The notes under the pieces: generated by a model
Told to the model about the DNA's origin: nothing
Databases searched by the model: none
The model's input: the letters and a program-made list of their open reading frames with translations, nothing else
Shown: positions 22,921 through 58,915 of the stretch, piece after piece
Position numbering within the stretch: position 1 is the first letter of the stretch
How the letters are laid out: every line of letters begins with the position of its first letter
From: a virus
Strand: one strand, 5' to 3'
Virus record (IMG/VR): IMGVR_UViG_3300036770_001537
DNA: 64,000 nt
Translations under genes and position numbers: made by a program

Positions 22921-23604
22921 TTAGCCTTTCTTTTGGTCCCTATGATAAGTTAGGATTTTATCAAAGAGAGTTTCAATGTAGTTCTCTTTACTTTCTATGA
23001 AGACTTGTGGCTTTGGTAGATCATCAGCCAGAATTATAATCACGATTTGGTCTATGACAATTTCTGTCCTTTCCTCATACATCAAAGCATATGCCGTTGC
23101 TTGTTCGAAGTAGTCCTGAATGTGTTCTTTTCTTTTCTCTTTCCTCGATGTCTTGAAATCAATGATTGAAAGAGTTCCGTCAAATTCAGCTATCACATCA
23201 GTTCTTCCAGCAAGCAACATCTTCTCGGAGTAAAGAGATGCTTCTATGTGGTGAATATTGTCTATTCTATCAACATCTGCTCGAATGTCAAGGAAATTCT
23301 GCTTGAGGTCCAGCATAAGATTTTCTGTTAGTGTTTTCACGGGAACATTTTCAAGATATTTTTCAAGCAGGTTATGAACTTTGGTTCCACGAGAAGATGC
23401 TTTAGCAGAAATTTTATTTGCTTCTTCATGTCCGACTCTATCACGCCATGCTTGAATTGCTTTCTTTTTGAAATGACCAAGCATGGTGGTGACAGATATT
23501 GCGTGAGTTCCGTTTGGTAGTATGTAAGTCCTTTTTCCGTCTTTTTCAAATTTGTCTAGTGTCACAAGTTCAGGGAGTCCTGATACATAACGAAATTGTT
23601 TCAT
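22921..23604 (-). CDS. PD-(D/E)XK (Cas4/RecB-like) exonuclease
   Basis: SVTTML, RGTKVH, AGRTDVIAEFDG..IIDFKTS, YFEQATAYA. Confidence 0.9.
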   Translation of the reverse strand: MKQFRYVSGLPELVTLDKFEKDGKRTYILPNGTHAISVTTMLGHFKKKAIQAWRDRVGHEEANKISAKASSRGTKVHNLLEKYLENVPVKTLTENLMLDLKQNFLDIRADVDRIDNIHHIEASLYSEKMLLAGRTDVIAEFDGTLSIIDFKTSRKEKRKEHIQDYFEQATAYALMYEERTEIVIDQIVIIILADDLPKPQVFIESKENYIETLFDKILTYHRDQKKG

Positions 23605-24209
23605 TTCTTTTTGATCCGTTTCTTAGGTCTTGCTGGTGGGGCCTTGGAATCTTCTTCTTTTGGCTTACCAAGAATCATCTTGGTCTTTATCGTGCCACCA
23701 ATTTTTCTCTTATACTTATTTCCACCAAGAACCTTTGTTTTTTTACCAGTTAGTTCAGTTGCACTTCTTGGAGAAATAACAGGTGCTTTGATTTTATTTT
23801 TGATGATATGCTGCATTGGACCAGAAAATTCTCCCCAAACATTACGAGCATCAGCCTGAGTTTTGAAATCCTCTTTCATGATATTGATGAAGTCTTTACT
23901 ACCTTGTTCTGATTTGTTTGTTCCGGCAGCAACAATCTTACGACCTTTTGATGGTTTGTAAAGAACCACAGCAGAGATTTTTCCATCACGCCTTACTGCT
24001 TTGATGTGTGAATTGGAAATGTCAGAATGAATGACTTTAGATTCTTCGTCGGAACCAGATTTCTGACCAGCATAACCACCAAGTTTAGAATATGAGTCAC
24101 GAAGAATATCGTGAATATCCTGCCTGTGAAGCTCACGATATCTTTCATGGTCTGGATTGAATCCTGGATTGAGGAATTTTTCTTCTAAGAATTGTAAAAA
24201 GGTTTCCAT
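23601..24209 (-). CDS. putative capsid-internal protein (CTS-like METFLQFLEE)
   Basis: N-terminal motif; basic tail; fold unknown, possibly GNAT-like. Confidence 0.6.
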   Translation of the reverse strand: METFLQFLEEKFLNPGFNPDHERYRELHRQDIHDILRDSYSKLGGYAGQKSGSDEESKVIHSDISNSHIKAVRRDGKISAVVLYKPSKGRKIVAAGTNKSEQGSKDFINIMKEDFKTQADARNVWGEFSGPMQHIIKNKIKAPVISPRSATELTGKKTKVLGGNKYKRKIGGTIKTKMILGKPKEEDSKAPPARPKKRIKKK

Positions 24210-24221
24210 TGTTGTTCCTTA

Positions 24222-25301
24222 TCAGGGATTTGTTTTTTGTTGTATGTTAGCAGCTACTCTTTTAAACCAAGAAGGTGAATCGCCATAGTTTGTGTATGTT
24301 GGTTTTCCTTCTCGTCGTCTTGCTCCCGCTCTTTTAGCCCATTCTTCATCTTCTCTGCCCATATGATCCGCAAGTCTGGCAGCCTTATATGCTTTTTGCT
24401 CACGTTCGCCAAATCCATGATCAACAATAACAAGATGTTCTTCGCCAGTATCTGGGTCCGTCGAAACTCCCCAATTTCCAGGTTGCGAATAATCCATTGG
24501 AGGTGTGCCAGTTTCAATCTGGTGCTGAAGAAGATTTTTGAAAAGTGGATGTGAAGTTATAGCATCCAGCTTTGCTTCATTTGCAGGACCAGTGTCGTGA
24601 TATGCCCCTCTACTCTTATGCCATTCTCTTTCTAGAGCACGAATCAAATGATGAAAAACTATTCCGTCTGGATGACTATCTGTTCTAGATATTTTAGTAA
24701 ATTCTCTACCAGATTTTATTCTACGAGCATAACCAGCTTCTGTCCATCTATGCTCCTTAACATCATGAGCATGTAGTTCTGGGAATATCCCATTTTTATT
24801 TCTTGTATATGTCCCATCGGGATTTCTAATATAGATACGCCATTTGTTATTTTTTTCATCTCCCGTTACAGGGTCTTTCATTCCGTTTTCGGCTTCATTT
24901 TGCATAACACCTAAAGGCGTTTTATTACCTAGGCTCTTATGTGCTTCATCAAGAGGTGCAGGTTGTGCAACTTTAAAAACGGTAGGGACTTCAGTTTCTT
25001 TTCCATCAAGAATTATGGTGTTGGTTTTATCTGGTTCTGTAATATTTTTAGTTCTATCTAAAGGTGCATCTGGAGAAGGTCTAGTGACCATTTGTGGCAA
25101 CAATGCCAATCTTGATGACCCTGATGCAACTTCTCCGAAACCAGGGTTTTCACCAAGACGCCTTGCAGCATCTCCCATAGCAGTAATCATCGGACCACTA
25201 AGTTTGTCATGATTATCCGCCTTTGTAATGGCATGTAGAATATCTGGATGAATTTTATGTTCTACTGCAAGTTCTTCTCTTATCTGCTTGAGAGTTTTCA
25301 T
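24222..25301 (-). CDS. putative capsid-internal protein with protein-kinase-like motifs
   Basis: MKTLKQIREE; SGSSR, VFKVA, QNEAE, DYSQPGNWG, VIVDHGF. Confidence 0.6.
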   Translation of the reverse strand: MKTLKQIREELAVEHKIHPDILHAITKADNHDKLSGPMITAMGDAARRLGENPGFGEVASGSSRLALLPQMVTRPSPDAPLDRTKNITEPDKTNTIILDGKETEVPTVFKVAQPAPLDEAHKSLGNKTPLGVMQNEAENGMKDPVTGDEKNNKWRIYIRNPDGTYTRNKNGIFPELHAHDVKEHRWTEAGYARRIKSGREFTKISRTDSHPDGIVFHHLIRALEREWHKSRGAYHDTGPANEAKLDAITSHPLFKNLLQHQIETGTPPMDYSQPGNWGVSTDPDTGEEHLVIVDHGFGEREQKAYKAARLADHMGREDEEWAKRAGARRREGKPTYTNYGDSPSWFKRVAANIQQKTNP

Positions 25302-26011
25302 ATCCCCATCTCTGTTCTGGTGACTATATAATCTTTCACAAGCCCAGACCTAACAATATCTGGCTTGTCAAATTCAATATAATCAAATCTGTTCATTTGT
25401 TTAGTTATATTTATAAACTTCATGAGTCCAGATTTATCTTTATCGTTAGACAAGTCGGTTTGTCTAAAGTCACCACAGAAAACAATCTTGGAATCGTCAC
25501 CCATACGAGTCATGACAGTATCGAGTTCACCGAATGTCATATTCTGGAGTTCATCAACAATCACGATTGCGTTTTTGAATGTCACTCCGCGAAGATATGA
25601 TGTTGTCGTGAATTGAACTAGCCCTTTCATTTTTAGAATATCATATCCATCACCACGACCAAACAAATCATCACAGATTTCTTTGTATGGTTCTTCATAT
25701 ACCTTGATCTTCTCTTTGATATTGCCGGGAAGGAAACCCATATCTCTTGATGGCACTACCGAACGAATGATAACAACCTTATCACATACAGAACGGCCTT
25801 TCAATACTTCTTCTAATGCTAGATAAAGAGAGATGAAAGATTTACCTGTTCCAGCGAATCCATGAAGTATCAAATTCTGCCCGTCACGATATGAATCAAA
25901 TGTCTTTTGCTGGTTTGGTGTTAGTGGATAGATTGTTCTAAGTTCAAAGTGTGTTTTTGCTTGTTGAACTTTGCTTTGTAGTTGTTCTCTCTTTACTTTT
26001 CTTTTTGACAT
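25298..26011 (-). CDS. phoH: PhoH-like ATPase
   Basis: GFAGTGKS, RSVVPSRDMGFLPG, RGVTF, VDELQN, FCGDFRQTDL, DIVRSGLV; GGAG RBS before MSKRK. Confidence 0.95.
   Translation of the reverse strand: MSKRKVKREQLQSKVQQAKTHFELRTIYPLTPNQQKTFDSYRDGQNLILHGFAGTGKSFISLYLALEEVLKGRSVCDKVVIIRSVVPSRDMGFLPGNIKEKIKVYEEPYKEICDDLFGRGDGYDILKMKGLVQFTTTSYLRGVTFKNAIVIVDELQNMTFGELDTVMTRMGDDSKIVFCGDFRQTDLSNDKDKSGLMKFINITKQMNRFDYIEFDKPDIVRSGLVKDYIVTRTEMGI
25408..25415 (-). promoter_or_regulatory. late promoter inside phoH, positioned for the two CTS-like genes
   Basis: tatttata about 110 nt upstream of 25301. Confidence 0.5.
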
Positions 26012-28285: not shown

Positions 28286-28337
28286 TTCTCCATTTCTCAT
28301 TGACGATGTAAGGATTATATCACACTTTAGTTCTAGG

Positions 28338-28577
28338 TCAAGCACTTTCTTTCATGTATTCGTAACTCCTCCGTTCGTCTGCCAGTTTGAGCAACTGAAT
28401 AACTTCGTCACTCTTCTTCTTATACTTTTTAGAAGTCATGACATACCGAACGGAACCTGCACACCAATTGTGATCAGCATACATGAGAGCCAAACGAACT
28501 TTCTTGGGCAAACGATCATAAGCATTCATAGACTGAGCAATGGAATACTTGGAAGCTTTTCCAGAAGAATTGTTCAT
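28338..28577 (-). CDS. hypothetical early protein
   Basis: Start MNNSS after the promoter cassette and GGAG. Confidence 0.7.
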   Translation of the reverse strand: MNNSSGKASKYSIAQSMNAYDRLPKKVRLALMYADHNWCAGSVRYVMTSKKYKKKSDEVIQLLKLADERRSYEYMKESA

Positions 28578-28640
28578 TTGGTGATCTCCCTTCCTCATCA
28601 TGTAGACATTATAGCACACTCAGCGAAGATGTCAAGCACT

Positions 28641-28952
28641 TTAATCCCACCAAAATTCAATAGTATTAGAATCAACCATACGAATTTCGGAAAACTTTGG
28701 TGCCATAAACATCATCGGTGAAATGAGCACTTCCACAACCGAGTATGCATTACGAAGATTGCCAATATCGATCTTTAGTGAACCATCCCAACGATCAGAA
28801 AGCATATTAGCAGCAAGCACTGTAATTTCTTCTCGGTCATGAAGCTCGACAATATGATTTAGGAGTTCAGGATTCCGAAACATACGATACTGCGAAAGGA
28901 TTTCCCGAACCTGTTCCGTAGCAATAGCAGTAGGCATTTGTTTCTCCATCAA
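28641..28952 (-). CDS. hypothetical early protein
   Basis: ORF coupled to its neighbour; ends FWWD. Confidence 0.65.
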   Translation of the reverse strand: MMEKQMPTAIATEQVREILSQYRMFRNPELLNHIVELHDREEITVLAANMLSDRWDGSLKIDIGNLRNAYSVVEVLISPMMFMAPKFSEIRMVDSNTIEFWWD

Positions 28953-29167
28953 AGGATTGCGAAAGGTTCATTCTCATCAACCAGAATATGAGTCCTCAAA
29001 TTCTTATTGTTGAAGACTCGAATCGGGCGGAACAATTCAACTGTATGTTGAACTGCACCACCATACTTTACACGAGAATCAACAACCTTTCCCATGTAAG
29101 GAGTCGAATCCAAATAAACACCACGAATTGTTTGTCCGGTACGATCCCAACCCATGATATTCTCCAT
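28949..29167 (-). CDS. hypothetical early protein
   Basis: GKVVDSRVKYGGAVQHTV; translationally coupled. Confidence 0.65.
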   Translation of the reverse strand: MENIMGWDRTGQTIRGVYLDSTPYMGKVVDSRVKYGGAVQHTVELFRPIRVFNNKNLRTHILVDENEPFAIL

Positions 29168-29463
29168 TAGCCGAAGGAACGAGCACTCTCAACTTCATCG
29201 GCAATCTCATCCCAGCATACTGCCCAGAGATCACCTACATGATGAAGATAAAACTTCCGACCATCAACTGTCATGCAGGCTTTATCAATTATCGCATACC
29301 AAGCATCCCAATACCATTCGTTGTCATGTGGACCATACGCAACACAAACAACATCAGGATCACCCACATCAAGACCCCATTGAGTCATATCGAAATCCTC
29401 AACGAAGTCCTTGGGAATGTAAATTCCACGAGAGTCTGCCAGAAGAAATTCCCGCGTGTTCAT
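29167..29463 (-). CDS. hypothetical early protein
   Basis: DSRGIYIP..YWDAW..GDLWAV; AGGAG RBS after cassette. Confidence 0.7.
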   Translation of the reverse strand: MNTREFLLADSRGIYIPKDFVEDFDMTQWGLDVGDPDVVCVAYGPHDNEWYWDAWYAIIDKACMTVDGRKFYLHHVGDLWAVCWDEIADEVESARSFG

Positions 29464-29516
29464 GAACAATCTCCTTTCCTCATCATGTAAACATTATAGC
29501 ACACTCAGCGAAGATG

Positions 29517-29756
29517 TCAAGCAGCAAGTTCCTTTGTAATCCTAAACTTCTCTGCCAGATCATCAAAGTCAACAAGGCTAATATCGACTGAGTGAATAAT
29601 CAAATCATGAGGGCTGTTCTTTAGAACCGGAAGTTCACTAATAATATCGTAAACATTTTCACCAGTCATTTCGTCCAGTTCAAGATTGTTAATCACTCCA
29701 GCAAACACAACCGAGAAGAGCCACGTTTCACGATTCGTATATCCATTGTAAGACAT
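29517..29756 (-). CDS. hypothetical early protein
   Basis: MSYNGYTNRETW N-terminus; AAGGA RBS. Confidence 0.7.
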   Translation of the reverse strand: MSYNGYTNRETWLFSVVFAGVINNLELDEMTGENVYDIISELPVLKNSPHDLIIHSVDISLVDFDDLAEKFRITKELAA

Positions 29757-29787
29757 TTTGATTTCCTTTGTTGAAGATCAGTCTGCT

Positions 29788-30168
29788 TTAGGCGACGAGC
29801 TTATAAGGTTTATTCCACTTGCCGACATTGATATTAACATACCAACCAACATCGAAATAGTCAACCTCAATTCGTGAATTGTTGTGGTTTCCAGTATTCA
29901 ATGCTTTGACTAGTTCCATAAGGAACTCTTTTACATCACCACTATAATGTTTATCGACATGATGTTCATTCACTTGAATATAATCTGAAACTTCTACATT
30001 TGTCGTATCTTTAAGATTTCTAATGAAATCAAGTTTACCGGATGAGATATTGCACACGATTGTGGAATGATGGTCTACAGCAAAGGTGGCTTTGACGCCA
30101 TACTTCTTGAGAATCGGCTTAGCCAAAGCAACAAGTTCAGCCTTTCGTTCTTGGTTCATATAAGCCAT
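29788..30168 (-). CDS. conserved phage hypothetical protein
   Basis: MAYMNQERK..DYFDVGWYVNINVGKWNKPY; GGAG RBS. Confidence 0.75.
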   Translation of the reverse strand: MAYMNQERKAELVALAKPILKKYGVKATFAVDHHSTIVCNISSGKLDFIRNLKDTTNVEVSDYIQVNEHHVDKHYSGDVKEFLMELVKALNTGNHNNSRIEVDYFDVGWYVNINVGKWNKPYKLVA

Positions 30169-30186
30169 GCTAAATCTCCAGAAAGT

Positions 30187-30260
30187 TGGCGAAGGTGGTA
30201 GGAATTGAACCCACATTTTCGGGTTTGGAAGCCGACGTGTTACCGTTACACTACACCGAC
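30187..30260 (-). tRNA. trnW: tRNA-Trp(CCA), atypical stems
   Basis: Cloverleaf GTCGGTG..loop TTCCAAA..GGTTCAATTCC..CACCTTC G CCA; two acceptor mismatches. Confidence 0.8.
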
Positions 30261-30264
30261 AGAA

Positions 30265-30411
30265 TTACCGAATCTTACGGCGGCGAGAAGGTTTGCAGAC
30301 AGTAACTTTCTTCTCACCAAACTTCTTCATCTCCTTTTCGATCAGAGCACGAGTATCAGCCTTGGACACAAGAGACTTATTCAGAACGATAGACTTTTGA
30401 ATCGCCGTCAT
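30265..30411 (-). CDS. small basic early protein (48 aa, not in ORF track)
   Basis: MTAIQKSIVLNKSLVSKADTRALIEKEMKKFGEKKVTVCKPSRRRKIR; GGAG RBS after cassette. Confidence 0.65.
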   Translation of the reverse strand: MTAIQKSIVLNKSLVSKADTRALIEKEMKKFGEKKVTVCKPSRRRKIR

Positions 30412-30476
30412 CAGCCATCTCCATCTCTCATCATGTGAACATTATAGCATACTCATAGAAGATGTCAAGAGGAAAA

Positions 30477-30692
30477 TTATTTAGTAAAATCAGAAAGTTG
30501 AGGCTTTGGGCCAAAGTATTTGCGGTGTTCTTCCCATGCCTCATACAACTTTTTATGAGAATCAGAAATTTCCATTATGCGACGAAACATCATATCCTTT
30601 TTATTGAAAAAAGACCAATCTTTATAATTACCGATCATATCATACATGAAATCGTGAGAACGAAGTTCGTCGTTGAATTGCTCCAGAGTCAT
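30477..30692 (-). CDS. hypothetical early protein
   Basis: Start MTLEQ after promoter and GGAG. Confidence 0.65.
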   Translation of the reverse strand: MTLEQFNDELRSHDFMYDMIGNYKDWSFFNKKDMMFRRIMEISDSHKKLYEAWEEHRKYFGPKPQLSDFTK

Positions 30693-30770
30693 ACGTGTTT
30701 CTCCATCTCTCATCGTTGAAACAGTATAGCACACTCACAGAAGAAGTCAACAACAAACTTCGCCTAGAAA

Positions 30771-31082
30771 TCAGAGGTAAGCAGCACCATAGGCACCGAG
30801 ACCCTTACCCCACGAATAATCGTCGTCAAAGACACTCCCGCGAATATGCTTGGCAGGAGCTTTCCACGATGCTGCCTTGAAGATATTACCATCGAAATCG
30901 AGGAAACAATATACCGACGCAGAACCGTGAGAGTTGTCAACAATCTTAATATACTTTCGACCGGGCTTGAACGTCAGAGTAACCTTAGAACCACGATCTT
31001 CAGAGCACTTCGCCTCAATGTGATTCAGAATAGCATCGAGAGAAAGCACTTCTTCATCTTTGACAAAGTGGATATTGGTCAT
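30771..31082 (-). CDS. conserved phage early protein
   Basis: GRKYIKIV..SVYCFLD..GNIFKAASWKAPAKHIRG. Confidence 0.75.
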   Translation of the reverse strand: MTNIHFVKDEEVLSLDAILNHIEAKCSEDRGSKVTLTFKPGRKYIKIVDNSHGSASVYCFLDFDGNIFKAASWKAPAKHIRGSVFDDDYSWGKGLGAYGAAYL

Positions 31083-31133
31083 CTGATTTCCTTTCCTCAT
31101 CATGTGAATATTATAGCACACTTAGCGAAGATG

Positions 31134-31505
31134 TCAAGCAATAAATTTCTGCTTTTTACGAATTGTATACCACTCCCCAGTTTCTTCATTCAGCACACAC
31201 CAATCTTCAGCCACATTTTTGAAAAGAATAATGTATGTAGGATCGAAATACACATCAAACAGAGCATCATCGATCATAATGGAATACTTCTTGATGCGAG
31301 TATAATTATCTTCTGCATCATCACCAAGAAGAATTGAAAGTTCATACCTATCTTTTTCAAGATCAGGAGTAACTGGATTGAGGTGTGCGAAGAAACTTTC
31401 CTGCCAGTAACCCCAATTCATATTGGGATTCACTTTGTGAAGAAGAATATCAGCAATAGAAGATGCTTTCAGCACATTGACGAGATCGTTGATAGTAACT
31501 TTCAT
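31134..31505 (-). CDS. hypothetical early protein
   Basis: ORF with AGGAG RBS. Confidence 0.65.
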   Translation of the reverse strand: MKVTINDLVNVLKASSIADILLHKVNPNMNWGYWQESFFAHLNPVTPDLEKDRYELSILLGDDAEDNYTRIKKYSIMIDDALFDVYFDPTYIILFKNVAEDWCVLNEETGEWYTIRKKQKFIA

Positions 31506-31535
31506 TGTGATATTCTCCTAGTTGATTGACAATCT

Positions 31536-31709
31536 TCAGTTACAGAAATGCCAACTCAAATTAACGCCAGAAGCATAACCAACCAAATCACCATCCTTGA
31601 AAACAGAAAACTCAAAGCCTCGATTTTTACCAAACTCAATTGCTTCTCCGAGAGAGTCGAAAACATCGTCAGAGTAGTAACCGAAGTTCGCGAAATAAAT
31701 CTCATACAT
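31536..31709 (-). CDS. hypothetical early protein
   Basis: Start MYEIYF after promoter and AAGGA. Confidence 0.6.
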   Translation of the reverse strand: MYEIYFANFGYYSDDVFDSLGEAIEFGKNRGFEFSVFKDGDLVGYASGVNLSWHFCN

Positions 31710-31776
31710 AAGAGCATCCTTTCTCAAGAGCATGGGAGTATATTACACACTCCCATGCTAGTTGTCAAGAGGAAAA

Positions 31777-32409
31777 TTACTGGAACGTACGTTCCATTAC
31801 CATATCGATTTCCTCAATCACGTCAGACATAATCAGTGCCCTATCGGGCTCTTCGAAATCAACGCGAACGCAATTGTATTCCCAAACCCAAACCATATCC
31901 TTGTGATTCTTGAAAACCTTTCCGTTCTTAATAACTTCGACCATCTCATCAGAAGTAGCAACACCAAGTTTGATGGCAGTGCCACGACGATAACCATAGC
32001 CGTTAGACTGTTCGAGCATAACAACAACTTTGCCAGTCGTGTTCTTCGGAACCTTACGGCCCTTCACAACCTTAACTTGGCAGCCTTTCTCAATTCGAGT
32101 ATTCCGAGAAAGAGCATCATTCAAACGCTTATCAAAAAGCATCTTGATAAGATACGTCTTGTAAGCAAGTTTCACAGCATCAGTGGCATCAACTTCCGCA
32201 TGGGAGTTGGAGCACCAATCATAATCGGATACACGAACAATAACAGTCTTGGGCTGGTTCTTCTCAGAATCCCAGACAATGGCTTCGTCAGCAGAACCCC
32301 AAACATCAGACATGATCCGATACGAAACATTCCGAAGAACCTGGAGAACGTGACCGACGTATTCAACAGACTTCACAGAACCATCACGATTCAGAAAATG
32401 GACTGCCAT
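31777..32409 (-). CDS. hypothetical early protein (KOW/SH3-like VKVVKGRKVP)
   Basis: ORF downstream of promoter cassette. Confidence 0.7.
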   Translation of the reverse strand: MAVHFLNRDGSVKSVEYVGHVLQVLRNVSYRIMSDVWGSADEAIVWDSEKNQPKTVIVRVSDYDWCSNSHAEVDATDAVKLAYKTYLIKMLFDKRLNDALSRNTRIEKGCQVKVVKGRKVPKNTTGKVVVMLEQSNGYGYRRGTAIKLGVATSDEMVEVIKNGKVFKNHKDMVWVWEYNCVRVDFEEPDRALIMSDVIEEIDMVMERTFQ

Positions 32410-32474
32410 GAGGTGTTCCTTTCATCAGCGTGAGAGTATAATAACACATCCGTAGAAGAAGTCAAGAGGAAAAA

Positions 32475-32762
32475 TTAGTCATCATACTGTACGTGCTTTT
32501 TAATTACCCACCGTTCAACAACCCATCGTCCGTTCTCGTCCTCATCAACAATGACGTGAACGGCGGTTTTAAGAACAAGTGCCTTTCGTACTTCTGTACC
32601 AGAAGGCCCAACAAAAATCAAGTGGGGAAATTCTACATTTTTTCCACCATGAGCCTTGGGCGAAAGAACCATATCAGGATTCTTCGCATATTCAAATACA
32701 TTATTATCGACAGTAAACCGACCTTGAACCTTGTAACCTTGGTTATACGGAGCGAAAGCCAT
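32475..32762 (-). CDS. hypothetical early protein
   Basis: GGAGG RBS; promoter upstream. Confidence 0.7.
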   Translation of the reverse strand: MAFAPYNQGYKVQGRFTVDNNVFEYAKNPDMVLSPKAHGGKNVEFPHLIFVGPSGTEVRKALVLKTAVHVIVDEDENGRWVVERWVIKKHVQYDD

Positions 32763-32838
32763 AGAAAACCTCCCTGTCTCAATGACAAGTAGATAGTAGC
32801 AAATTCACAAACCCTCGTCAAGAGGAAAATTCCCAAGC

Positions 32839-33162
32839 TCAACGCACATCGGTATTGAGCTTGGGCTTCAGATCACGAATCAACTGACGTTCAACATCGT
32901 GTGCCGCAGTTTTACCACGAACAACTTCGATAATCTCTACCGTGAAAGCATCTGGGCCATACTTACGAATGGCTTCACACAGCTTCCACGTCCTGTTTTC
33001 TGTCATAGCACGTTGGACGTGTTTCAGCCAACGTCTACGGAGAGATTTGACCGGAGAACCATTCTCTACATGAGTCATGCCAATATATACCATTGACTTG
33101 ATCTGAATCTTGTAGATCAGATGGTTCCGGTCAGAGCGTTTTTTCCGTCGTTTCGTCATCAT
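32839..33162 (-). CDS. small GIY-YIG-like nuclease
   Basis: LIYKI..VYIGMT, RWLKH, AIRKYG..F, E..LI..LN. Confidence 0.75.
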   Translation of the reverse strand: MMTKRRKKRSDRNHLIYKIQIKSMVYIGMTHVENGSPVKSLRRRWLKHVQRAMTENRTWKLCEAIRKYGPDAFTVEIIEVVRGKTAAHDVERQLIRDLKPKLNTDVR

Positions 33163-33245
33163 GCAAGCATTATAGCACATCCATCATGCTTGTCAATCAC
33201 TTTTTTGCATGACAGATATACTAAAAATGCATAACTAAACGGTTA

Positions 33246-38661: not shown

Positions 38662-38828
38662 TTTTTACCTTTTGCTTGTTCAAGTGCTCTCAATTTTCTT
38701 TTTAGAAATTCTCTTACATCCTGATTGGCTCTCATCATCTGTCTTTTAGTATTGACGATAGCATTTTCTATTTCTTTGGGATCAGGATTGTCGTTTACCT
38801 CACGGATAATCTGCCTTAGCGATTTCAT
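38658..38828 (-). CDS. 56-aa putative capsid-internal protein (MKSLRQIIRE; not in ORF track)
   Basis: Manual translation; ATGA-coupled on both sides. Confidence 0.65.
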   Translation of the reverse strand: MKSLRQIIREVNDNPDPKEIENAIVNTKRQMMRANQDVREFLKRKLRALEQAKGKK

Positions 38829-47265: not shown

Positions 47266-47283
47266 CTTTCTATCATTTTCCTC

Positions 47284-47311
47284 TTGACAACCTTGACAAG
47301 CACTATATAAT
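47284..47311 (+). promoter_or_regulatory. sigma70-type promoter antisense to the late block
   Basis: TTGACA-16-TATAAT, intergenic. Confidence 0.5.
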
Positions 47312-47339
47312 GGCTATGTCAGCCCTTCAATGAATACTA

Positions 47340-47726
47340 TTAGATACTTCTTAGTCTCTTAGCTACTTCTAAGTCTATTCCAATATCACTTGAGTTTATA
47401 TCACTTCCATTGATTCCATAGATGATCTTAGGAATATAGTTCAAGTATAATAAGAATGTCTTGAGTATATGATAATCTTTACTATCAAATCTAAAGAATA
47501 ACATTCTTACAGTTGCTTCTGTTCCAAAAACATTAGAAAGAACAATGATATGATTAAGTATCAATCGTTCTTTCAAGTCACCAGTTACTTTATATTTTCT
47601 AATCAATCTCTTGACATACTTAATTCTTTTTAAGTCTCCTTCAAATTCAGACATAATACAGTTAGGAGTATTATATGATTTCATTGCATAGATCAAGAAA
47701 TTATCATCAGTCAGGTTATCAATCAT
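47340..47726 (-). CDS. conserved T4-like hypothetical protein
   Basis: NFLIYAMKSY..EFEGDLKRIKYVKRL..ERLILNHIIVL.NVFG. Confidence 0.85.
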   Translation of the reverse strand: MIDNLTDDNFLIYAMKSYNTPNCIMSEFEGDLKRIKYVKRLIRKYKVTGDLKERLILNHIIVLSNVFGTEATVRMLFFRFDSKDYHILKTFLLYLNYIPKIIYGINGSDINSSDIGIDLEVAKRLRSI

Positions 47727-47729
47727 TAA

Positions 47730-48197
47730 TTACTTTAGTCGTTCTTCTTTCTCATCTTCTACGTCATTTACATCATCTTCCATTTCATCAAGTAATTCAT
47801 CAAGTTCTTCTTGATTTACAATCTCACAGAACACATCATATCTACCTGTACCGTTCATTAGGTATTCAAAATAGATATGATATGGAGTTTCTACTTTTGT
47901 TACTACTGTACCATCATTTTTCATACCCATTAATTCACCAAACTGATTCAGGTCAAATACCTGAACACCATGATTACCCTCAAGATATGGAACTTTAGGA
48001 AGATGAAAGTGAAAGTTGGCTAATACCTTTGCTACTCTTTCTAGTCCAATGTAGGGAGTAACAAAACTACAGGCTAGAGCATTAGTCAAAAGATTATTGA
48101 TATTTTCCTTGACAGGATTGTTATCAATACCGATTTCGCCTCTTTCTACATTCTGTGTTAGATCAACTTCTTCTGTAATTCTTCTGAGTTTAATCAT
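47730..48197 (-). CDS. hypothetical late protein (MIKLRRITEE)
   Basis: ORF in late operon; CTS-like start. Confidence 0.7.
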   Translation of the reverse strand: MIKLRRITEEVDLTQNVERGEIGIDNNPVKENINNLLTNALACSFVTPYIGLERVAKVLANFHFHLPKVPYLEGNHGVQVFDLNQFGELMGMKNDGTVVTKVETPYHIYFEYLMNGTGRYDVFCEIVNQEELDELLDEMEDDVNDVEDEKEERLK

Positions 48198-48212
48198 GGT
48201 GCTATCTTTCTA

Positions 48213-48821
48213 TTATACGCCGGTAAAGTAGACGTTATCCTTTGGATCGTCTTGAGTGATAGAACCCATAGCAATAAGTGTTTCTGTTTGGATTCTGCCA
48301 GCACGACCACCTAGAACAACTGTAAATGTAGGTAGTGTGGTGTAATCACCTGAATCTGTATCAATTGTGATATCAGAAGCATTAGACCAACCAGAACCAC
48401 CATCTACAACAGTAATTGTGTTGATGACATTGAGTTGTGAATTGGTTGAGTATGATTCAAGTGTATTTTGTGAGTTGGCAATAGTGAATGAAATATTTGC
48501 ACCAGTGCCTGTGCCATGAACTGAAGCATCTGTTAGAAGAAGGAAACCGGCAGTATTGACACCTGCACCACCAGAAGCAGATACAGAAACTACTGGACCT
48601 GTTCCTACTTTTAGTGAAACCCAACCAGCATGTGTTGGATGTTGTGGTGTGCCAGCAGAAGTAGTTTCTTCTGTAGCAGAAACACCAGCAACTACGCCAT
48701 AATACTTGACAGTATTTGCTACTGAATCGTGAATGGTTGAAGTTGATGTTACGTTATTAGTATTCGCATATAATGGCTTATTATTGCCAGTATCATAATC
48801 TTTGTTACCCCATAAGCTCAT
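48213..48821 (-). CDS. virion structural protein
   Basis: MSLWGNKD, HAGWV, GRAGRIQTETLIAMGSI. Confidence 0.75.
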   Translation of the reverse strand: MSLWGNKDYDTGNNKPLYANTNNVTSTSTIHDSVANTVKYYGVVAGVSATEETTSAGTPQHPTHAGWVSLKVGTGPVVSVSASGGAGVNTAGFLLLTDASVHGTGTGANISFTIANSQNTLESYSTNSQLNVINTITVVDGGSGWSNASDITIDTDSGDYTTLPTFTVVLGGRAGRIQTETLIAMGSITQDDPKDNVYFTGV

Positions 48822-48855
48822 TTCTTGTTACTCCTTGAGTTTTAGTTTTATATAT

Positions 48856-49122
48856 TTATCTGCTTTGTCCCACGAGGTCTTCTTTTTCAGGATTGACAGT
48901 AATAGTGTCTGCTGATGTATGTGGGACTACTTTTTCTTTCTTTTTAGTATCTGTATTAGCATCACCATTCATGTTGCCATCTTCGGCAACAAGACTTCTT
49001 TTCATCTTTCTACGATAACGAGGCTTCCTGGGCATTTCGGAACCTCCACGCCCAAGAAGTGCTTCATTTACTTTCTCTTTAGCCATCTCTTTGATGAGAG
49101 ATACAAGTTTTGACGTTTTCAT
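48856..49122 (-). CDS. putative capsid-internal protein
   Basis: MKTSKLVSLIKE; coupled. Confidence 0.6.
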   Translation of the reverse strand: MKTSKLVSLIKEMAKEKVNEALLGRGGSEMPRKPRYRRKMKRSLVAEDGNMNGDANTDTKKKEKVVPHTSADTITVNPEKEDLVGQSR

Positions 49123-50417
49123 TATGCTCCACCGCCACCAGTAATACCTGAGAAATCACCTCTTGTTGCTCTTGAAAAAGAGGATGATGATTTTCTTTCT
49201 GGTGCTTGTCTAACAGACCTAGTGGTGGATGGTTCACTTGCAAAAGGACTGCCGCTTCCTCCATCACCAACTCTGCTCCAGTCAGGTTTTGAATCTTGAC
49301 TTGATGTTGCTGGTGCTGCTGGTTTTGGTGCAGTTGCTGGTCTTGCTGCTTGTTTTGCCGCTGGTGTTGCAGGTGACACACCAGTTTCTAAATCTTTACT
49401 AGGTTCACCCTGAATAGATGCAGAAGGCATTGGTCTTGGTGTAACATTTGATGGAACATCTAACATTCCAGGGGTGGATTTTGCTGAATTTGCAGACGCC
49501 CCAAGACTGTTTTGTGTTGATGTTGGTGCACTTGGATTATTGGGCCTAACACCTAAATTTGGTGTTATTCCCATTTGACCTAAAGATGTCGGTCTTGTAG
49601 GTGTTGTTTTTGGATCACCAAATGCACCATAATTTTTAGATGTTGCACCATAATTATATGTTGTTGGTGCCTTTGTGGGATTTGATGGATCATTGCCATC
49701 TGCTGGCTGAGGTCTAGAGCCTTCTCCATATTTACCTAAAACTCTTGCTCTAAAACTCTGTCTCCATGTCATATTTTCAGTGTTACCGAATACTTCACTC
49801 AAAATTCCTCTTTCTTCTTCACTCAATGTATCATAAGCATATTGTGCTGCTTGCTCACCATATGTTTCATATACAGAATTTAGTTTCTCAAGGAGATTAT
49901 TTCTAATTTCTTCATTAAGAGAATCAAATGATTCGTCCATTTTCTTTTTAGACAAACCGGCTTGACTCAAAGCAATAGCAACTGCTTGTTTCTGTCCTTT
50001 TTTAGTTACAGGAACAGTCTTATCTGATTTGCCGATATGCTCTTTACCTTTTTTCCATTTATGCATAACCTTGGCAACTTTTTCTTTTTGTGCTTCTGTT
50101 GCCTTGGCTTCTTCAAGTGTTTTGTCTTTACGAAGTTTAGCAAGATCGGCCGCCTCAATCTCGTCTTTATCACCTGCTTTTGCAGCCAATTTCTTTTGCT
50201 TAGGAGAAAGTTCTTTATCATCATCTTCTTCATACATACATTTCTTGGCTTCTTCAAGCATAGCGTCATATTTACCATGTAGTTCGTGTGGCAATGCTTT
50301 CTTGGAATGGACCCCAAACGCTTCATTTACACTTTTAAGGGCTTCTCTTTCCTTTTCATTTTGCTCCATAATCTTTTTGACTGCATCCACTAATGGATCT
50401 TTTTTGTTGTTGAACAT
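49122..50417 (-). CDS. putative prohead core/internal protein with repeated LxE sites
   Basis: LSPKQKKLA..DKDEIEAADLAKLR and QAVAIALSQAG modules; P/S/T-rich tail. Confidence 0.7.
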   Translation of the reverse strand: MFNNKKDPLVDAVKKIMEQNEKEREALKSVNEAFGVHSKKALPHELHGKYDAMLEEAKKCMYEEDDDKELSPKQKKLAAKAGDKDEIEAADLAKLRKDKTLEEAKATEAQKEKVAKVMHKWKKGKEHIGKSDKTVPVTKKGQKQAVAIALSQAGLSKKKMDESFDSLNEEIRNNLLEKLNSVYETYGEQAAQYAYDTLSEEERGILSEVFGNTENMTWRQSFRARVLGKYGEGSRPQPADGNDPSNPTKAPTTYNYGATSKNYGAFGDPKTTPTRPTSLGQMGITPNLGVRPNNPSAPTSTQNSLGASANSAKSTPGMLDVPSNVTPRPMPSASIQGEPSKDLETGVSPATPAAKQAARPATAPKPAAPATSSQDSKPDWSRVGDGGSGSPFASEPSTTRSVRQAPERKSSSSFSRATRGDFSGITGGGGA

Positions 50418-50514
50418 AGATAGATTCCTTTTGATAGAAAAATGTTGCTGTTTATATTTATTATTCTTCGCAATTCCATTTTCTCAAGGACTTATTGATC
50501 CTTGAATCCTGGGC

Positions 50515-50925
50515 CTAATTGTTGCGTTCTTTTAAATATTTTATTGCAGATTCCAAATTTTTTATATTATCTTTAAAATTGCCAAGCCCTCTATTACAAT
50601 GATGACACAACATACCTCTGAATTTTCCAGTATCGTGATTGTGATCCATTACTAAATTATATACTTTCCCTAAGTGTTTGTTATTTCTTGACCCGGAATT
50701 TTCGGTTCCCCCACATATATCACAGTTAATTTGTTTTCTAAGATTTCTAACTTCATCATCAGAAAGTTGTCCTCTAAATTTTCCTCTATTAATTTCACTT
50801 CTATACGAGGCTCTACATTTTCTACACCAACTATCCAATCCGTCTAATTTTTTATTGTGTGGTGGAAAATGTATTAAATCTTTTGGTTTTTCTTCTTTAC
50901 ATCTAGTGCAATTTTTAATAGACAT
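50515..50925 (-). CDS. endonuclease VII-like homing endonuclease
   Basis: CTRC..CRKC, CDIC, DHNHDTGKFRGMLCHHCNRGLGNFKD. Confidence 0.88.
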   Translation of the reverse strand: MSIKNCTRCKEEKPKDLIHFPPHNKKLDGLDSWCRKCRASYRSEINRGKFRGQLSDDEVRNLRKQINCDICGGTENSGSRNNKHLGKVYNLVMDHNHDTGKFRGMLCHHCNRGLGNFKDNIKNLESAIKYLKERNN

Positions 50926-50958
50926 GAATACATTCCTTTTTCATTACAAATATATTTA

Positions 50959-52821
50959 TTATTCACAGTTCCACTTTCTTAATGCTAGGGCTTTTCTAGT
51001 GGGCCTGCCTTTTTCATCTTTCATAGGACCACGAGCACCACCCATCCTCGCACAAAATGATTTACGTCGTTTCCATGCCTTGGAACCGGGCTTTAATTTA
51101 GAAGGTTTGGTTGTTACAGCAGTTTGTAGTTTGGAACCTGGATTTGCTCGTCTGTATGAGGCAACACCTTTCTTATTAAGTCCACCTTCAGGGTCTTTTC
51201 CTTCTTTTCTTTGCCAAGCAGGTGATGCTTCTGATAATTCTCTATCTGTTCCTTGTTTGGGTACAGTTCCCATTTGAGCGTAGTCTTGTAGTTCTTTTAG
51301 GTGCTTTTGGAATGTCTCTCTTGCTTTTTCAGCCAGTGTGCCAAATGGATATGAATATCCTGTTCCAAGAGAACTTTGAATGCCTGCACCAAATCCAGAA
51401 ATACCTGAATAACGATTACCGAACTCTGGTCCAATAGTATCACTTGATGGTAATGTATATGGAGTGTTATACATATCAAGTGTTGAGCCTAATAGCCCAT
51501 CTTCAGTGAGTTTCTTTCTCACAATCTTCTTCTTGGGCTTTTCTTCAAATAAAGGATTGAATGGAAATGTTTGACCGGGTGTTGCATCAGCATAAATTTT
51601 GGTCAATGATGTCTTGCCCCATTCTCTATCAGATGGTGTGTTTTCATTCAAGAAATCATCAAAACTTTCATTGACTGATTTCCAACCACCACCTTTTGAT
51701 TTATACCATTTTGCCGCCCAACCATTGGCATATGCAGATGGATATACATCAAATTTTTGTTTTGCCATTGATTTGGCTCTTGCCCACAATTCAGGATTTG
51801 TTGGCTTGTTTTTTTCCATTAGATATTCTTCTGTCGCAACAAAAACTGGCTTTCCGCCTTTACCTTTTCTATCTGCCACTGGGTCTTTCCTTCTTTTTCT
51901 TCTTGCTGATTTTGCTCTTTCTTCCTTGGACATTGCCCGTGCAGATGCTAATGGCCTACATTTTGGTTTACCTTCACCGGGTTCACGGGCACATTGACCT
52001 TTGATATTACCTTTGGTATCAAACCTGACCCATTTTTCTTTGAACCATTTACGAAGGTCTTCGTTGATATCTGTTTCTTCTACCATATGTTTGAGTGAGA
52101 ATTTATCTGGATTGGCACGACCATACCATCTCATAATCTGACCTGCCATTGCATTTGCTTCATTTTCAATGTCAGAACCAGTTTCACCTTCTTTGGCAAC
52201 ATCCTTGATTCTACCGTCTTCATCCTGCTTACAATGAACCAACTCATGTGCTACGGTACGAAAAATATCCATTGGATGGCGGTTTTTAGTCACTACGACA
52301 ATTGACTTTTCGGATGGAGAATATCCACCAAAACTGGTGAAGTTTTCTTCTGCGTCTTTATATTTTAATTTTGGAAGGGATTTGATGCCAAGTTTTTCGG
52401 AAGCAAATGATACAAATGAATCTAGCATTGGACTAAAGTCTTGGTGATTGATTTCTTCGTTTAGATTATTATAATCATGTGCTTTCTTGACCAAATCAAG
52501 AATTGGCAAATCTACCATAAATGCTCTGGTTGAACCTGTAGTATTGTGGTCGGCAATCCAACGATGGTGCCCGTCAAGTATGTGTGAATCTCTTGAAATT
52601 ACTATTGGCGATTTCTTTTCTTTAGTATGCATCATCTGTAGAACTTTCATATCATCAAAGTCTGCTTGAGTAGATTTGAGAGATGATGTATCAAAGTCTT
52701 TTTCTGTGAAGTCTATACCTTCATCTTTTAACTTTTGAACGAATGCTTTGGAATCTGCCAATTGTGGCATCAACTGTCTACTTAAAGTCTGTCCTATTGC
52801 TGGAATTTCTATCTTTTTCAT
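50959..52821 (-). CDS. modular protein: ParB-like + zincin HEXXH + basic modules
   Basis: ILDGHHRW; RTVAHELVH..ENEANA; LRKWFKEKWV; FDVYPSAYAN; RRKSFCARM..ALRKWNC. Confidence 0.75.
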   Translation of the reverse strand: MKKIEIPAIGQTLSRQLMPQLADSKAFVQKLKDEGIDFTEKDFDTSSLKSTQADFDDMKVLQMMHTKEKKSPIVISRDSHILDGHHRWIADHNTTGSTRAFMVDLPILDLVKKAHDYNNLNEEINHQDFSPMLDSFVSFASEKLGIKSLPKLKYKDAEENFTSFGGYSPSEKSIVVVTKNRHPMDIFRTVAHELVHCKQDEDGRIKDVAKEGETGSDIENEANAMAGQIMRWYGRANPDKFSLKHMVEETDINEDLRKWFKEKWVRFDTKGNIKGQCAREPGEGKPKCRPLASARAMSKEERAKSARRKRRKDPVADRKGKGGKPVFVATEEYLMEKNKPTNPELWARAKSMAKQKFDVYPSAYANGWAAKWYKSKGGGWKSVNESFDDFLNENTPSDREWGKTSLTKIYADATPGQTFPFNPLFEEKPKKKIVRKKLTEDGLLGSTLDMYNTPYTLPSSDTIGPEFGNRYSGISGFGAGIQSSLGTGYSYPFGTLAEKARETFQKHLKELQDYAQMGTVPKQGTDRELSEASPAWQRKEGKDPEGGLNKKGVASYRRANPGSKLQTAVTTKPSKLKPGSKAWKRRKSFCARMGGARGPMKDEKGRPTRKALALRKWNCE

Positions 52822-54637: not shown

Positions 54638-54640
54638 ATC

Positions 54641-56566: not shown

Positions 56567-56581
56567 TGCCTATATTGGAAA

Positions 56582-57307: not shown

Positions 57308-58531
57308 CTATTTAGTTGCTTTGGTGTTATGTGTTAATGATGCAACCGGTGTATATCCATATTCTTGCATCAAAAATGGTAGCATATAATGTTTGATATT
57401 ATATTTTACTATGTCTTTATCTTCCAAAGAAGCACCTGCCTTCATTCCCCTAGAATGTGCTACTGCAATTGTAGCTATATGTAATGGGCTTCCGCCCTCT
57501 GCACTATGGGCAAATAATCTTATAGAAGATTTTTTCTTCCCTCCTCTAGTTTCAAATTCCATAGAATAGTCTGTGGGTTTAAATCTATCTTGAAAAAATT
57601 TCCATGCATGATCCACATCATATATATGTGTGCCCTCACTACTATCTACTACCCTCCACCTTTTTATGTGTGGTTCTTGCTCTCTTGTTCCAGATGGTAT
57701 CAATTCATGTTGATTCATAAAAGTGTTGGCTAATCTTATTCTTTCCGATTGTTTTCTCTTATCTGATATAGAGTCATTTCTTGTTCTTATTTTTGAACCC
57801 ATACCACCTTTAGTATATAATGGACTTTTATAAAATAGTCTTTTAATTTTTCCTAATGTAGATAATCTTTCTTTATATTTTTTGGAACCTCTAGTCATTG
57901 TCGATGGAACTAAGTCTTTCTTGGCAACCCATTCACCTTTATCATTTTTTATAGTTCCTGTTAATACTCTATTCAATCTTTCGGCCATAGGGTTAAAATG
58001 ACTGTACTGTGGGCTCATTTTCAAATCTATCAGATATGTATCTGGGCGTCCATCTTTCGCATTATTTAATTTTGTTATCAAGTCCTCAACTGCTCTACCG
58101 GAAGTGAATGATGGAACCCCCATAGATTTTCTCACTGCATTTTTTGTTTGTGTTGATGAATCTTTTGTTTCATGTGAATGTGAGGTTGGGTTTATGCCAG
58201 ATACTGCATACATTGCGTGATGTATAAAATGTGCAATATTTCTTGATCTGGCTTCATCATTTGGACTATTTGCTGTATATTGTAATGTTTGAATTACCCC
58301 TTTATTTTCAGCATCATTTGTCATAGGATAATATGAGAAATTTTCATATCCGAGAGGGGATTCTGATGATCCTTTAGGATAATTGGCGGACGCAATTAGA
58401 GATGAATTTGTGTTTGCCATATTCAATGATGTAGAATTTTTAATTAATCTTGGTTCCGATTTAAGTGCTGGCTCTAAAGTTCCCCTTTTACCGGTAGCCA
58501 TCTCTGCAATATATTGTCTAAATGTGAGCAT
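57308..58531 (-). CDS. putative capsid-internal protein (MLTFRQYIAE)
   Basis: CTS-like start; late promoter 58560-58567. Confidence 0.7.
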   Translation of the reverse strand: MLTFRQYIAEMATGKRGTLEPALKSEPRLIKNSTSLNMANTNSSLIASANYPKGSSESPLGYENFSYYPMTNDAENKGVIQTLQYTANSPNDEARSRNIAHFIHHAMYAVSGINPTSHSHETKDSSTQTKNAVRKSMGVPSFTSGRAVEDLITKLNNAKDGRPDTYLIDLKMSPQYSHFNPMAERLNRVLTGTIKNDKGEWVAKKDLVPSTMTRGSKKYKERLSTLGKIKRLFYKSPLYTKGGMGSKIRTRNDSISDKRKQSERIRLANTFMNQHELIPSGTREQEPHIKRWRVVDSSEGTHIYDVDHAWKFFQDRFKPTDYSMEFETRGGKKKSSIRLFAHSAEGGSPLHIATIAVAHSRGMKAGASLEDKDIVKYNIKHYMLPFLMQEYGYTPVASLTHNTKATK

Positions 58532-58559
58532 TATTATCCCCTAAATCCTGTAATAGACA

Positions 58560-58573
58560 TATTTATATAAATA
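58560..58573. promoter_or_regulatory. overlapping divergent late promoters
   Basis: TATTTATATAAATA = TATAAATA on both strands. Confidence 0.85.
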
Positions 58574-58600
58574 CACAATACAACCCAAAAAGAGTATTCT

Positions 58601-58915
58601 ATGAAAACATTCAAAGACTTTATTCAAGAAGCAAGAACTCAAATCTCACCAGAAGAAAAAGAACAGATCGTCAGGCTATACAACAAGAGAATTAAAGAAA
58701 CTCGTAAGTCTGGTGCTAATTTTAGTATACACTCACTAGCTGATGAGACTGGTTACAGCCATCAAACACTAAGAAGGCATATATTCACTCGTGGTGTTTA
58801 TAACAGTATTGTGGGCAACATTAAAGAGAAAGAACCTGGTTTTGAACACGTAGAAATGAGATTTGGTGCAGGAAGACCTAAGAAAGAGGGCAAACCACAT
58901 AAATGGTCTGGATAG
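58601..58915 (+). CDS. putative capsid-internal HTH protein (MKTFKDFIQE)
   Basis: SIHSLADETGYSHQTLRRH helix-turn-helix. Confidence 0.7.
   Translation: MKTFKDFIQEARTQISPEEKEQIVRLYNKRIKETRKSGANFSIHSLADETGYSHQTLRRHIFTRGVYNSIVGNIKEKEPGFEHVEMRFGAGRPKKEGKPHKWSG

Follow-up and report, generated by a model that had tools for sequence, protein, structure and literature searches.

A leader resembling the T4 capsid-targeting sequence on unrelated genes of an uncultured marine T4-like phage

In a 64-kb stretch of DNA (hereafter ‘the window’) from the IMG/VR virus record IMGVR_UViG_3300036770_001537, we confirmed that 9–11 genes, unrelated in the rest of their sequence, share an N-terminal leader with the consensus M-K-T-[FL]-[KR]-Q-[FI]-[IL]-x-E. 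Judging from the comparisons described below, this leader is with high probability a genuine capsid-targeting propeptide of the T4 type. The T4 capsid-targeting concept has been textbook knowledge since 1996, and marine T4-like phages count among the sea's most abundant viruses.

The explanation that best fits our observations as a whole, and that we consider quite probable, would combine a targeting tag, gp21-type cleavage and a packaged cargo set in two parts. By analogy with the T4 internal proteins IPII and IPIII, the leader would dock a newly made protein onto the scaffolding core during prohead assembly. A prohead protease of the gp21 type (family S77) would then cut after the Glu of a hydrophobic-x-Glu motif, and the mature cargo would stay in the head with the DNA. 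One part of the cargo, most likely lying on the packaged DNA, would be made up of very basic small proteins and of polyprotein modules (DUF6321, DUF5872 and DUF6496). The other would comprise larger proteins, including one with a predicted restriction-endonuclease fold and one that is possibly ParB/Srx-like, which would enter the next host with the DNA. The leader, its enrichment, its portability, the homology blocks that begin at its Glu and its co-occurrence with gp21-type proteases are observed; what we infer for this phage are the steps of docking, cleavage, packaging and ejection, and any activity of the cargos.

A leader shared by unrelated genes

The window is part of a 74.5-kb linear record whose completeness is estimated at 45%. 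It carries genes of the T4-type replication and nucleotide class (gp61 primase, RNase H, class II ribonucleotide reductase (RNR), ThyX and PhoH), and baseplate or tail genes are also encoded. The gp61 primase is ~44% identical to cyanomyovirus primases. Apart from a 57-bp stretch of the RNR gene, no near-identical DNA was found in the INPHARED phage collection, and a contig of 163,882 bp encodes proteins identical to those of the window phage. The phage appears to be an uncultured marine T4-like virus, distant from isolated phages.

A sequence-only reading of the window had listed 11 N-termini of this kind, and every one of them was found at the position given for it. Ten of the genes lie on the minus strand (starting at 24209, 25301, 38828, 39094, 39845, 40249, 47265, 48197, 49122 and 58531) and one on the plus strand (58601). 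For the genes starting at 39094 and 40249, the program that lists open reading frames (ORFs) gives upstream TTG starts, and the leader ATG is preceded by an AAGGA-type ribosome site. The same reading had called the cargos (the parts that follow the leader) unrelated, which holds: an all-against-all BLASTP of residues 11 to end gave zero cross-hits at E 1e-4. The same leader residues are encoded by different codons among the leader genes, which indicates selection on the peptide and thus conservation of the peptide rather than of a DNA cassette.

A regular expression fitted to the leader set matched 9 gene starts in the 74.5-kb contig, versus 0.018 expected. Since a fitted expression is circular, we built a second, independent rule from T4 mutagenesis alone. 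For the T4 IPIII tag, a review (PMC9026906) assigns targeting mostly to residues 4 and 7, and processing to 8 and 10; the rule therefore requires hydrophobic residues at 4 and 7, an aliphatic residue at 8 and Glu at 10 (M-x-x-[FYLIMW]-x-x-[FYLIMVW]-[ILVMT]-x-E). Of the 230 first-ATG ORFs of the contig it selected 9, and of the 438 later ATGs none. The background, estimated from five other phage genomes, is ~0.2%, which corresponds to ~0.5 expected matches (Poisson P ~1e-9). Applied to T4 itself, the rule finds ipII, ipIII, gp24 (MAKINELLRE), gp61.1 and alc, and 3 of 958 later ATGs; T4 gp24 is a propeptide-bearing substrate of gp21 (PMC5694885). Eight of the 11 listed leaders satisfy the strict rule, and the ninth match on the contig, MTDMNEIVQE near 62750, is probably due to chance. 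A supposed leader family of 121 residues (MKLFKTYINE) was rejected, as its start is a conserved internal Met of NrdB.

Four leaders end with Glu-Glu following [IL]-x, which would allow cutting behind residue 9 or residue 10. Either would satisfy the preference of gp21 for I/L-x-E (PMC12991175).

The leader is conserved above its cargos and independent of them

In the family of the 359-residue leader protein, residues M1, K2, T3, L4, K5, Q6, E9 and E10 are invariant across four homologue clusters that are 42–86% identical. In the family of the 407-residue protein, the N-termini of the six full-length homologues that extend this far (24–35% identity) all read ML[TS]FKQ[YF][IV]xE or nearly so; just 21 columns are invariant, E10 being one of them. 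Mean pairwise identity is higher in residues 1–10 than in the rest of the protein in three families (0.87 versus 0.54, 0.52 versus 0.30 and 0.66 versus 0.59).

We also scanned IMG/VR with the DNA encoding residues 1–8 alone (MKTFKQFI), a query that leaves residue 10 outside. There were at least 130 matches; at least 127 of them open an ORF of at least 40 residues, and at least 122 have no more than 25 open codons upstream. Among the matches listed, residue 10 is Glu in 103 of 130 and residue 9 is Glu in 25, and at least 95 distinct cargo sequences follow the leader. Some of the matching contigs, among them IMGVR_UViG_3300025288_000189 (positions 4800–7200), have tandem arrays in which three or four MKTFKQFI..E genes span ~2.5 kb, with cargos that are all different. 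Arrays of leader genes thus recur, similar to the run from 40249 to 38658 in the window.

Cargos can also change behind a leader that stays. The locus after phoH encodes the 359-residue protein in the window, but in a relative, G001, it encodes an unrelated protein of 358 residues with the leader MKTFKQFVIE. Furthermore, a cargo can occur without the leader. Homologues of the 244-residue leader protein form 101 clusters, 52 of which have the leader, while ~30 are leaderless and begin at the cargo domain (MILFSGNKKAYV...). For one leaderless cluster we read the contig, which is 34 kb long and podovirus-type, with T7-type portal, scaffold and capsid genes, and which carries DUF6496 and DUF6321 as small stand-alone genes that are likewise leaderless. 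The leader is therefore present on T4-type genomes and absent in the one podovirus context examined, which indicates that its presence is independent of the cargo. These patterns show that the leader is a portable unit, conserved above its cargos, and indicate that it is functional.

Homology blocks in polyproteins start at the predicted cut site

Two larger ORFs of the window lack the leader but are strings of small basic modules joined by hydrophobic-x-Glu junctions, and these modules are separate leader-bearing genes in relatives. The first (50959–52821, minus strand) encodes 620 residues with a ParB-like N-terminal domain (DGHHR), an HELVH motif, a DUF5872-like part (Pfam, 4e-8) and a C-terminal DUF6321 (2.6e-21); a PDB sequence search with this protein gave no match. 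The second (49122–50417, minus strand) encodes a basic protein of 431 residues with a DUF6496 module (Pfam, 4e-5).

The Lys/Arg-rich DUF6321 module (AAWQRKEGK ... LRKWNC) was found in three settings. It occurs as a stand-alone protein of 97 residues directly behind a leader (...FLEE, then SAAWQRK), behind QIDE, LIE or QLDE in proteins of two and three modules, and behind ELSE at the C-terminus of both the 620-residue ORF and a 767-residue ORF of G001. A second module (DLRKWFK.KWVR.DTKGNIKGQCAR) begins after QVDE, DINE or TLDE. In the 620-residue ORF the modules begin right after ...DINE and ...ELSE, which matches the points after the leader Glu10 at which the stand-alone homologues start. Homology thus begins at a Glu in leaders and polyproteins alike, and so its start coincides with the predicted cut site. 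These boundaries support the view that the 620-residue ORF encodes a polyprotein processed by a protease, and the 431-residue protein is probably a head-internal polyprotein. In the podovirus-type contig, DUF6496 is a stand-alone gene of 51 residues that adjoins the portal gene, and the DUF6321 and DUF6496 genes lie 0.4–1.7 kb upstream of the portal gene.

Relatives encode a prohead protease, and virions of one contain a leader-bearing protein

An S77 homologue of gp21 is encoded by all five complete relatives that we found through the primase, and by four of five other large leader-bearing contigs, the fifth of which is 52% complete. Homologues of gp22 and gp23 are present in G001, in a second relative (G002) and in the cyanophage S-SM1. 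The head module of G001 includes gp20, gp21 (MKLIKEQVEE...), gp22 and gp23, and in gp23 a ...QLNE site precedes the mature N-terminus. Genes of the leader type flank gp23 of G001 on both sides (MKTFKKFIQE, 544 residues; MKSFKQFRQYLSE, 292 residues; MKNFVGSIIE, 82 residues), two of them downstream, from ~0.7 kb. Leader genes number ~9–10 in the 164 kb of G001, 5–6 in G002, 1–2 in S-SM1 and 3–4 in T4, so the window phage, with 9–11 in 64 kb, is at the rich end.

The proteins detected in purified virions of S-SM1 include a ‘cytidylyltransferase’, T4-GC190, with 25 peptide counts, as well as T4-GC1453, 1454, 1455, 425 and 426 (Sullivan et al. 2010, PMC3037559, Table S8). In the S-SM1 genome the corresponding genes are SSM1_188–197, a block immediately upstream of the primase gene gp61. 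The T4-GC190 protein (SSM1_190) starts with MKKFSAFLNE, its S-RIM2 orthologue with MKKFSAFLTE, and a relative of 633 residues in G002, which has the same Pfam domain, with MKSFLQLVEE. Thus, at least one enzyme-like protein bearing the leader is physically present in a marine T4-like virion.

Alternative explanations

The sequence-only reading had interpreted the N-termini as capsid-targeting sequences of the T4 type, and the conservation of the leader, the co-occurrence of Glu10, the module boundaries, the podovirus control, the S77 protease and the S-SM1 virion protein all agree with it. Several points nevertheless weigh against it. No gp21 prohead protease, gp22 scaffold or gp23 major capsid protein was found on the 45%-complete contig, so that the protease is deduced from relatives. 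The leaders MKTLKQIREE and MKKFKTLREE fail the T4-derived rule, solely through Arg at residue 8; they read [IL]-R-E-E, so an I/L-x-E ending at Glu9 is still available. The leaders of two weak entries, the proteins of 155 residues (48197) and 88 residues (49122), are not kept in their nearest G001 orthologues. T4 alc, not known to be a head protein, is likewise selected by the rule. The leaderless polyproteins of 620 and 431 residues would have to enter the head by another route, and SSM1_197 (T4-GC426) is present in S-SM1 virions without a leader, so the leader is not the sole way in. In addition, only two leader genes lie directly behind an exact late promoter. The location of the genes does not count against capsid targeting, since the T4 ip genes likewise lie among non-structural genes, outside the structural clusters (T4 genome NC_000866).

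That unrelated N-termini have come to resemble each other by chance can practically be dismissed. Accidental matches do occur, at the internal Met of NrdB and at the MTDMNEIVQE ORF, but 9 matches stand against 0.02–0.5 expected and the leaders are conserved in homologues, so the counts reject this idea. It is also very improbable that the N-terminus is an element of expression or stability (A-rich start codons, an N-terminal helix) or a tag for some other machinery. AT-rich phages often have genes that start with MK, an exact late promoter is missing from most leader genes, which lie amid replication and metabolism genes, and alc of T4 fits the loose rule; such an element would nevertheless leave unexplained the fixed Glu10 (103 of the 130 matches listed), the hydrophobic residues 4 and 7, the homology blocks that start at Glu, the leaderless homologues in podoviruses, the co-occurrence with an S77 protease and the near identity to the T4 tag. 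A stronger, though still unlikely, alternative accepts targeting to the prohead and holds that the cargos serve only assembly or DNA condensation, with no role after ejection and no ‘effector kit’. Accessories of the core or scaffold, or charge-neutralising proteins, would fit the fact that 8 of the 11 mature cargos are basic and several have only 46–94 residues; DUF6321 and DUF6496 are Lys/Arg-rich and lie near the portal gene in the podovirus, and no cargo matches a known anti-defence family. On the other hand, some cargos are enzyme-like (the 407-residue protein with its PD-(D/E)XK fold, the possible ParB/Srx-like protein and the cytidylyltransferase of S-SM1 virions). Cargo is also replaced at a fixed locus between relatives, much as happens at ipI of T4, and such replacement would fit functions directed at the host; for T4 IPI*, inhibition by an injected protein is proven (PMC3012670). 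We prefer the explanation in which tagged cargos are packaged, cleaved and in part delivered; that they are anti-defence or host-takeover effectors, as the earlier reading proposed, is a hypothesis.

Comparison with known systems

The tags of T4, as read from NC_000866, are MKTYQEFIAE (ipII and ipIII, as the earlier reading had stated) and MKTFKEFTSTTTPVSTITE (ipI, beginning MKTFKEF...). According to Mullaney and Black (1996), as cited in PMC9026906 and PMC3012670, gp21 removes the capsid-targeting sequence (CTS) of IPII, IPIII and IPI. Five of the window leaders (MKTFKDFIQE, MLTFRQYIAE, MKTFRQFLYE, MKTLKQIIAE and MMSFKQFIKE) differ from the T4 tag at two to four residues. The window leaders resemble the T4 CTS in length, in their position at the extreme N-terminus, in the hydrophobic or aromatic residues 4 and 7, in the aliphatic-x-Glu at 8–10 and in the small residue after the predicted cut. 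They also do so in their setting, with unrelated and mostly basic cargos, genes scattered outside the structural clusters and cargo swapped at a fixed locus. Unlike in T4, there are at least nine leader genes in 64 kb rather than 3–4 in the whole genome, and the cut motif also links modules in polyproteins of 431–767 residues, as far as sequence alone can tell. The phage itself is a distant marine T4-like, with a primase ~44% identical to those of cyanophages.

The ip loci of T-even phages are polymorphic, with different cargos behind a conserved leader (Repoila et al. 1994, as cited in PMC9026906). The locus after phoH is similar in that the cargo differs wholly between the window phage and G001 while the leader stays; unlike at the T-even loci, the swap spans uncultured marine phages, and cargo families also occur leaderless in podoviruses. 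In the giant phages SPN3US and phiKZ, a prohead protease related to gp21 cuts propeptides of ejection proteins after Glu, and these have been proposed to target the proteins into the head, but the propeptides are 20 to >100 residues long, have an A/S-x-E motif and share no 10-mer (PMC5694885).

We found no description of a capsid-targeting tag in marine T4-like phages in the open literature searched, and Sullivan et al. 2010 (PMC3037559) do not mention a targeting leader. What is new is the presence of a near-unchanged tag in distant, uncultured marine T4-like phages and the number of its cargos, the recurrence of the cut motif at the junctions between small basic modules of polyproteins, and the occurrence of these cargos in podoviruses in leaderless form.

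Should the leader function as it does in T4, a motif of ten residues would suffice to tell from sequence which proteins enter the host with a marine T4-like phage, and the cargo list would provide concrete candidates for host takeover in the first minutes or for counter-defence. The leader would also account for the presence in virions of an ‘enzyme’ like the cytidylyltransferase of cyanophages. Cargo domains would have been recruited to delivery in the head in two ways, by gaining a leader or by being placed after a protease site within a polyprotein, and the tag could be tried as a packaging handle in T4-like systems other than those of coliphages. A broader and more tentative idea, which we regard as possible though on balance doubtful, is that the leader is an ancient, portable address label shared almost unchanged from coliphages to abundant marine T4-like phages, from which the whole head-packaged proteome of uncultured phages could be read, including, in the window phage, active enzymes delivered with the DNA (the nuclease-fold and ParB/Srx-like proteins). 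Were this true, the delivered enzymes would act ahead of the expression of any phage gene, either attacking the DNA of the host or of competitors or weakening host defences.

Leader genes and their cargos

The 11 mature cargos comprise eight basic proteins (isoelectric point (pI) 8.4–10.5), two acidic ones and one neutral one, and several are just 46–94 residues long. Searches of Pfam (E up to 5) and PHROGs gave almost no match, and none to a known anti-defence family. Pfam and PHROG searches likewise linked no cargo to an internal-protein family, although the mature parts were not compared directly with T4 IPI–III. Internal proteins of T-even phages are unrelated to one another.

The most interesting single cargo is the candidate head-packaged nuclease-fold protein, a basic protein of 407 residues with the leader MLTFRQYIAE (57308–58531, minus strand), to which the earlier reading had assigned no fold. 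A word-index search with it gave no match, and its homologues were found by an exhaustive HMMER search. Its structural model is of moderate quality (predicted local distance difference test (pLDDT) 68.6, predicted TM-score (pTM) 0.74). In VIA-align the best match is HinP1I (1ynm; Z 8.3, root-mean-square deviation 4.8, 206 of 241 residues aligned), where a Z of 8 is borderline by the tool's own calibration; MspI follows (Z 6.0), and then ThaI, SfiI, BglI, SwaI, HhaI, Hjc and others. Foldseek lists HinP1I and MspI weakly. Invariant in nine sequences of the family are E149-D150, just before the strand 151–156, and D169-x-K171, at the end of the strand 163–171. The modelled protein thus has what defines PD-(D/E)XK enzymes, namely an alpha-beta-beta-beta-alpha-beta core with an acidic residue and (D/E)-x-K on consecutive strands, and we predict this restriction-endonuclease fold with moderate confidence.

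Modelling of another large cargo was less informative. This protein of 359 residues (leader MKTLKQIREE; 24222–25301, minus strand), encoded immediately after phoH and with its leader kept in homologues, had been called kinase-like. The model is poor (pLDDT ~52.5) and has no fold match above Z 3.5, and Pfam gave no match. The family conserves D270-x5-N276 and VIVDHG; a bilobal kinase fold would have catalytic D-x4-N and DFG-like motifs. Peptide patterns revealed no close relatives of either the 407- or the 359-residue cargo in IMG/VR. Beside the gene for the 359-residue protein is that for a protein of 202 residues (METFLQFLEE; 23601–24209, minus strand) whose mature form has a pI of 10.2 and which matches nothing in Pfam or PHROGs.

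Four leader genes stand in tandem on the minus strand. The uppermost encodes an acidic protein of 135 residues (MMSFKQFIKE; 39842–40249; phrog_17560 at 1e-10) with a possible ParB/Srx-like domain: LDGTHR is present and phmmer gave a weak match (E 0.014) to the N-terminal, ParB/Srx-type domain of SbnI, while Pfam ParBc did not match even at E 5. It is followed by the protein of 244 residues (MKTFRQFLYE; 39111–39845), with homologue clusters both with and without the leader, for which ESM Atlas and PDB sequence searches gave no match. The last two genes encode basic proteins of 89 residues (MKTLKQIIAE; 38825–39094, from the ATG at 39094) and 56 residues (MKSLRQIIRE; 38658–38828), both of which fit the T4-derived rule. 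The 5′ untranslated stretches at 39060–39094 and 40215–40249 (minus strand) are alike (AAGGA..CACATCT.AA, then ATG), a likeness that points to the start region having been duplicated locally inside this cluster. Directly downstream of the run lies a leaderless ORF of 259 residues (37882–38661, minus strand) with a motif of papain-like (C1) cysteine peptidases, QGDIGSCTGHA.

The only leader gene on the plus strand encodes a basic protein of 104 residues (MKTFKDFIQE; 58601–58915), in which a helix-turn-helix signal is marginal (Pfam E-values 0.02–0.1, PHROG 0.0014). Other folds that the earlier reading had ascribed to leader proteins, GNAT and metallo-hydrolase, found no support; the HELVH motif belongs to the leaderless 620-residue polyprotein.

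The block beside the primase and gp61.1

The window region 46396–52821 is syntenic with the virion-protein block of S-SM1, the anchors being the primase and a gene of 128 residues (47340–47726) that is 44% identical to SSM1_196. The block thus has the same position upstream of the primase gp61 as that of T4-GC190, but contains no detectable homologue of T4-GC190. Within it, two genes upstream of the primase, lies the gene for a leader protein of 289 residues with a Gly-rich N-terminal part (MKKFKTLREE; 46396–47265, minus strand).

The two weak candidates are found here as well, both on the minus strand. An acidic protein of 155 residues (47730–48197) starts with MIKLRRITEE and fits the T4-derived rule; its G001 orthologue (55% identical) has a leader three residues shorter, MKNLKEE. 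A basic protein of 88 residues (48856–49122) starts with MKTSKLVSLIKE, which fits the tag only loosely and has its Glu at residue 12; the G001 orthologue starts with MRFDKLVEMIKS and has no Glu at the matching place.

Between these two genes, a protein of 202 residues (48213–48821, minus strand) starts with MSLWG..D.D...KP, like the ‘S-layer domain’ protein T4-GC425 of S-SM1 virions (MALWGITDADESKP) and its HTVC008M counterpart. BLAST at E 1e-3 gave no link between them, so the link consists of synteny and the N-terminus alone. In S-SM1, a hidden leader upstream of T4-GC426 was considered and rejected, as there is an in-frame stop just upstream.

T4 gp61.1, a ‘hypothetical protein’ of 54 residues beside the primase (NC_000866 18966–19130, minus strand), opens with a perfect tag, MKTFKEFIKE, and continues with a Gly-rich stretch and a Lys run. 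Contigs of marine T4-like phages encode a counterpart of 61–65 residues (MKTFKQFMLE, then DGAVGG...GEPGV..KKK) a few kb upstream of the primase, and a gp61.1-like N-terminal part is common to the 289-residue leader protein of the window and a protein of 142 residues in G001. The pairwise E-values (2e-7 and 2e-4) rest on short, low-complexity matches. Nevertheless, gp61.1 may be an overlooked and widely conserved head-internal protein.

Late promoters and timing of expression

Several leader genes had been described as lying behind the late-promoter motif TATAAATA. This is the case for the divergent pair 58531/58601, between which two overlapping exact copies, one per strand, occupy 58560–58573, and for no other leader gene. 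A further exact copy lies within the end of phoH (25408–25415, minus strand), 107 nt upstream of the leader gene starting at 25301, and a GATAAATA precedes the gene starting at 40249 by 46 nt. The window contains 16 exact copies of TATAAATA, an enrichment over the 6.7 expected. With one mismatch the motif is not enriched (173 versus 158 expected), so relaxed promoter matches carry little weight.

The earlier reading would have been contradicted by leaders that are equally frequent among early non-virion ORFs. In the densely promoted early region at 28.3–33.2 kb, 0 small ORFs bear the leader. Several small ORFs of this same region (28300–33200) start with a near-identical peptide of their own, MCYN..MMRKG, each from GTG or ATG.

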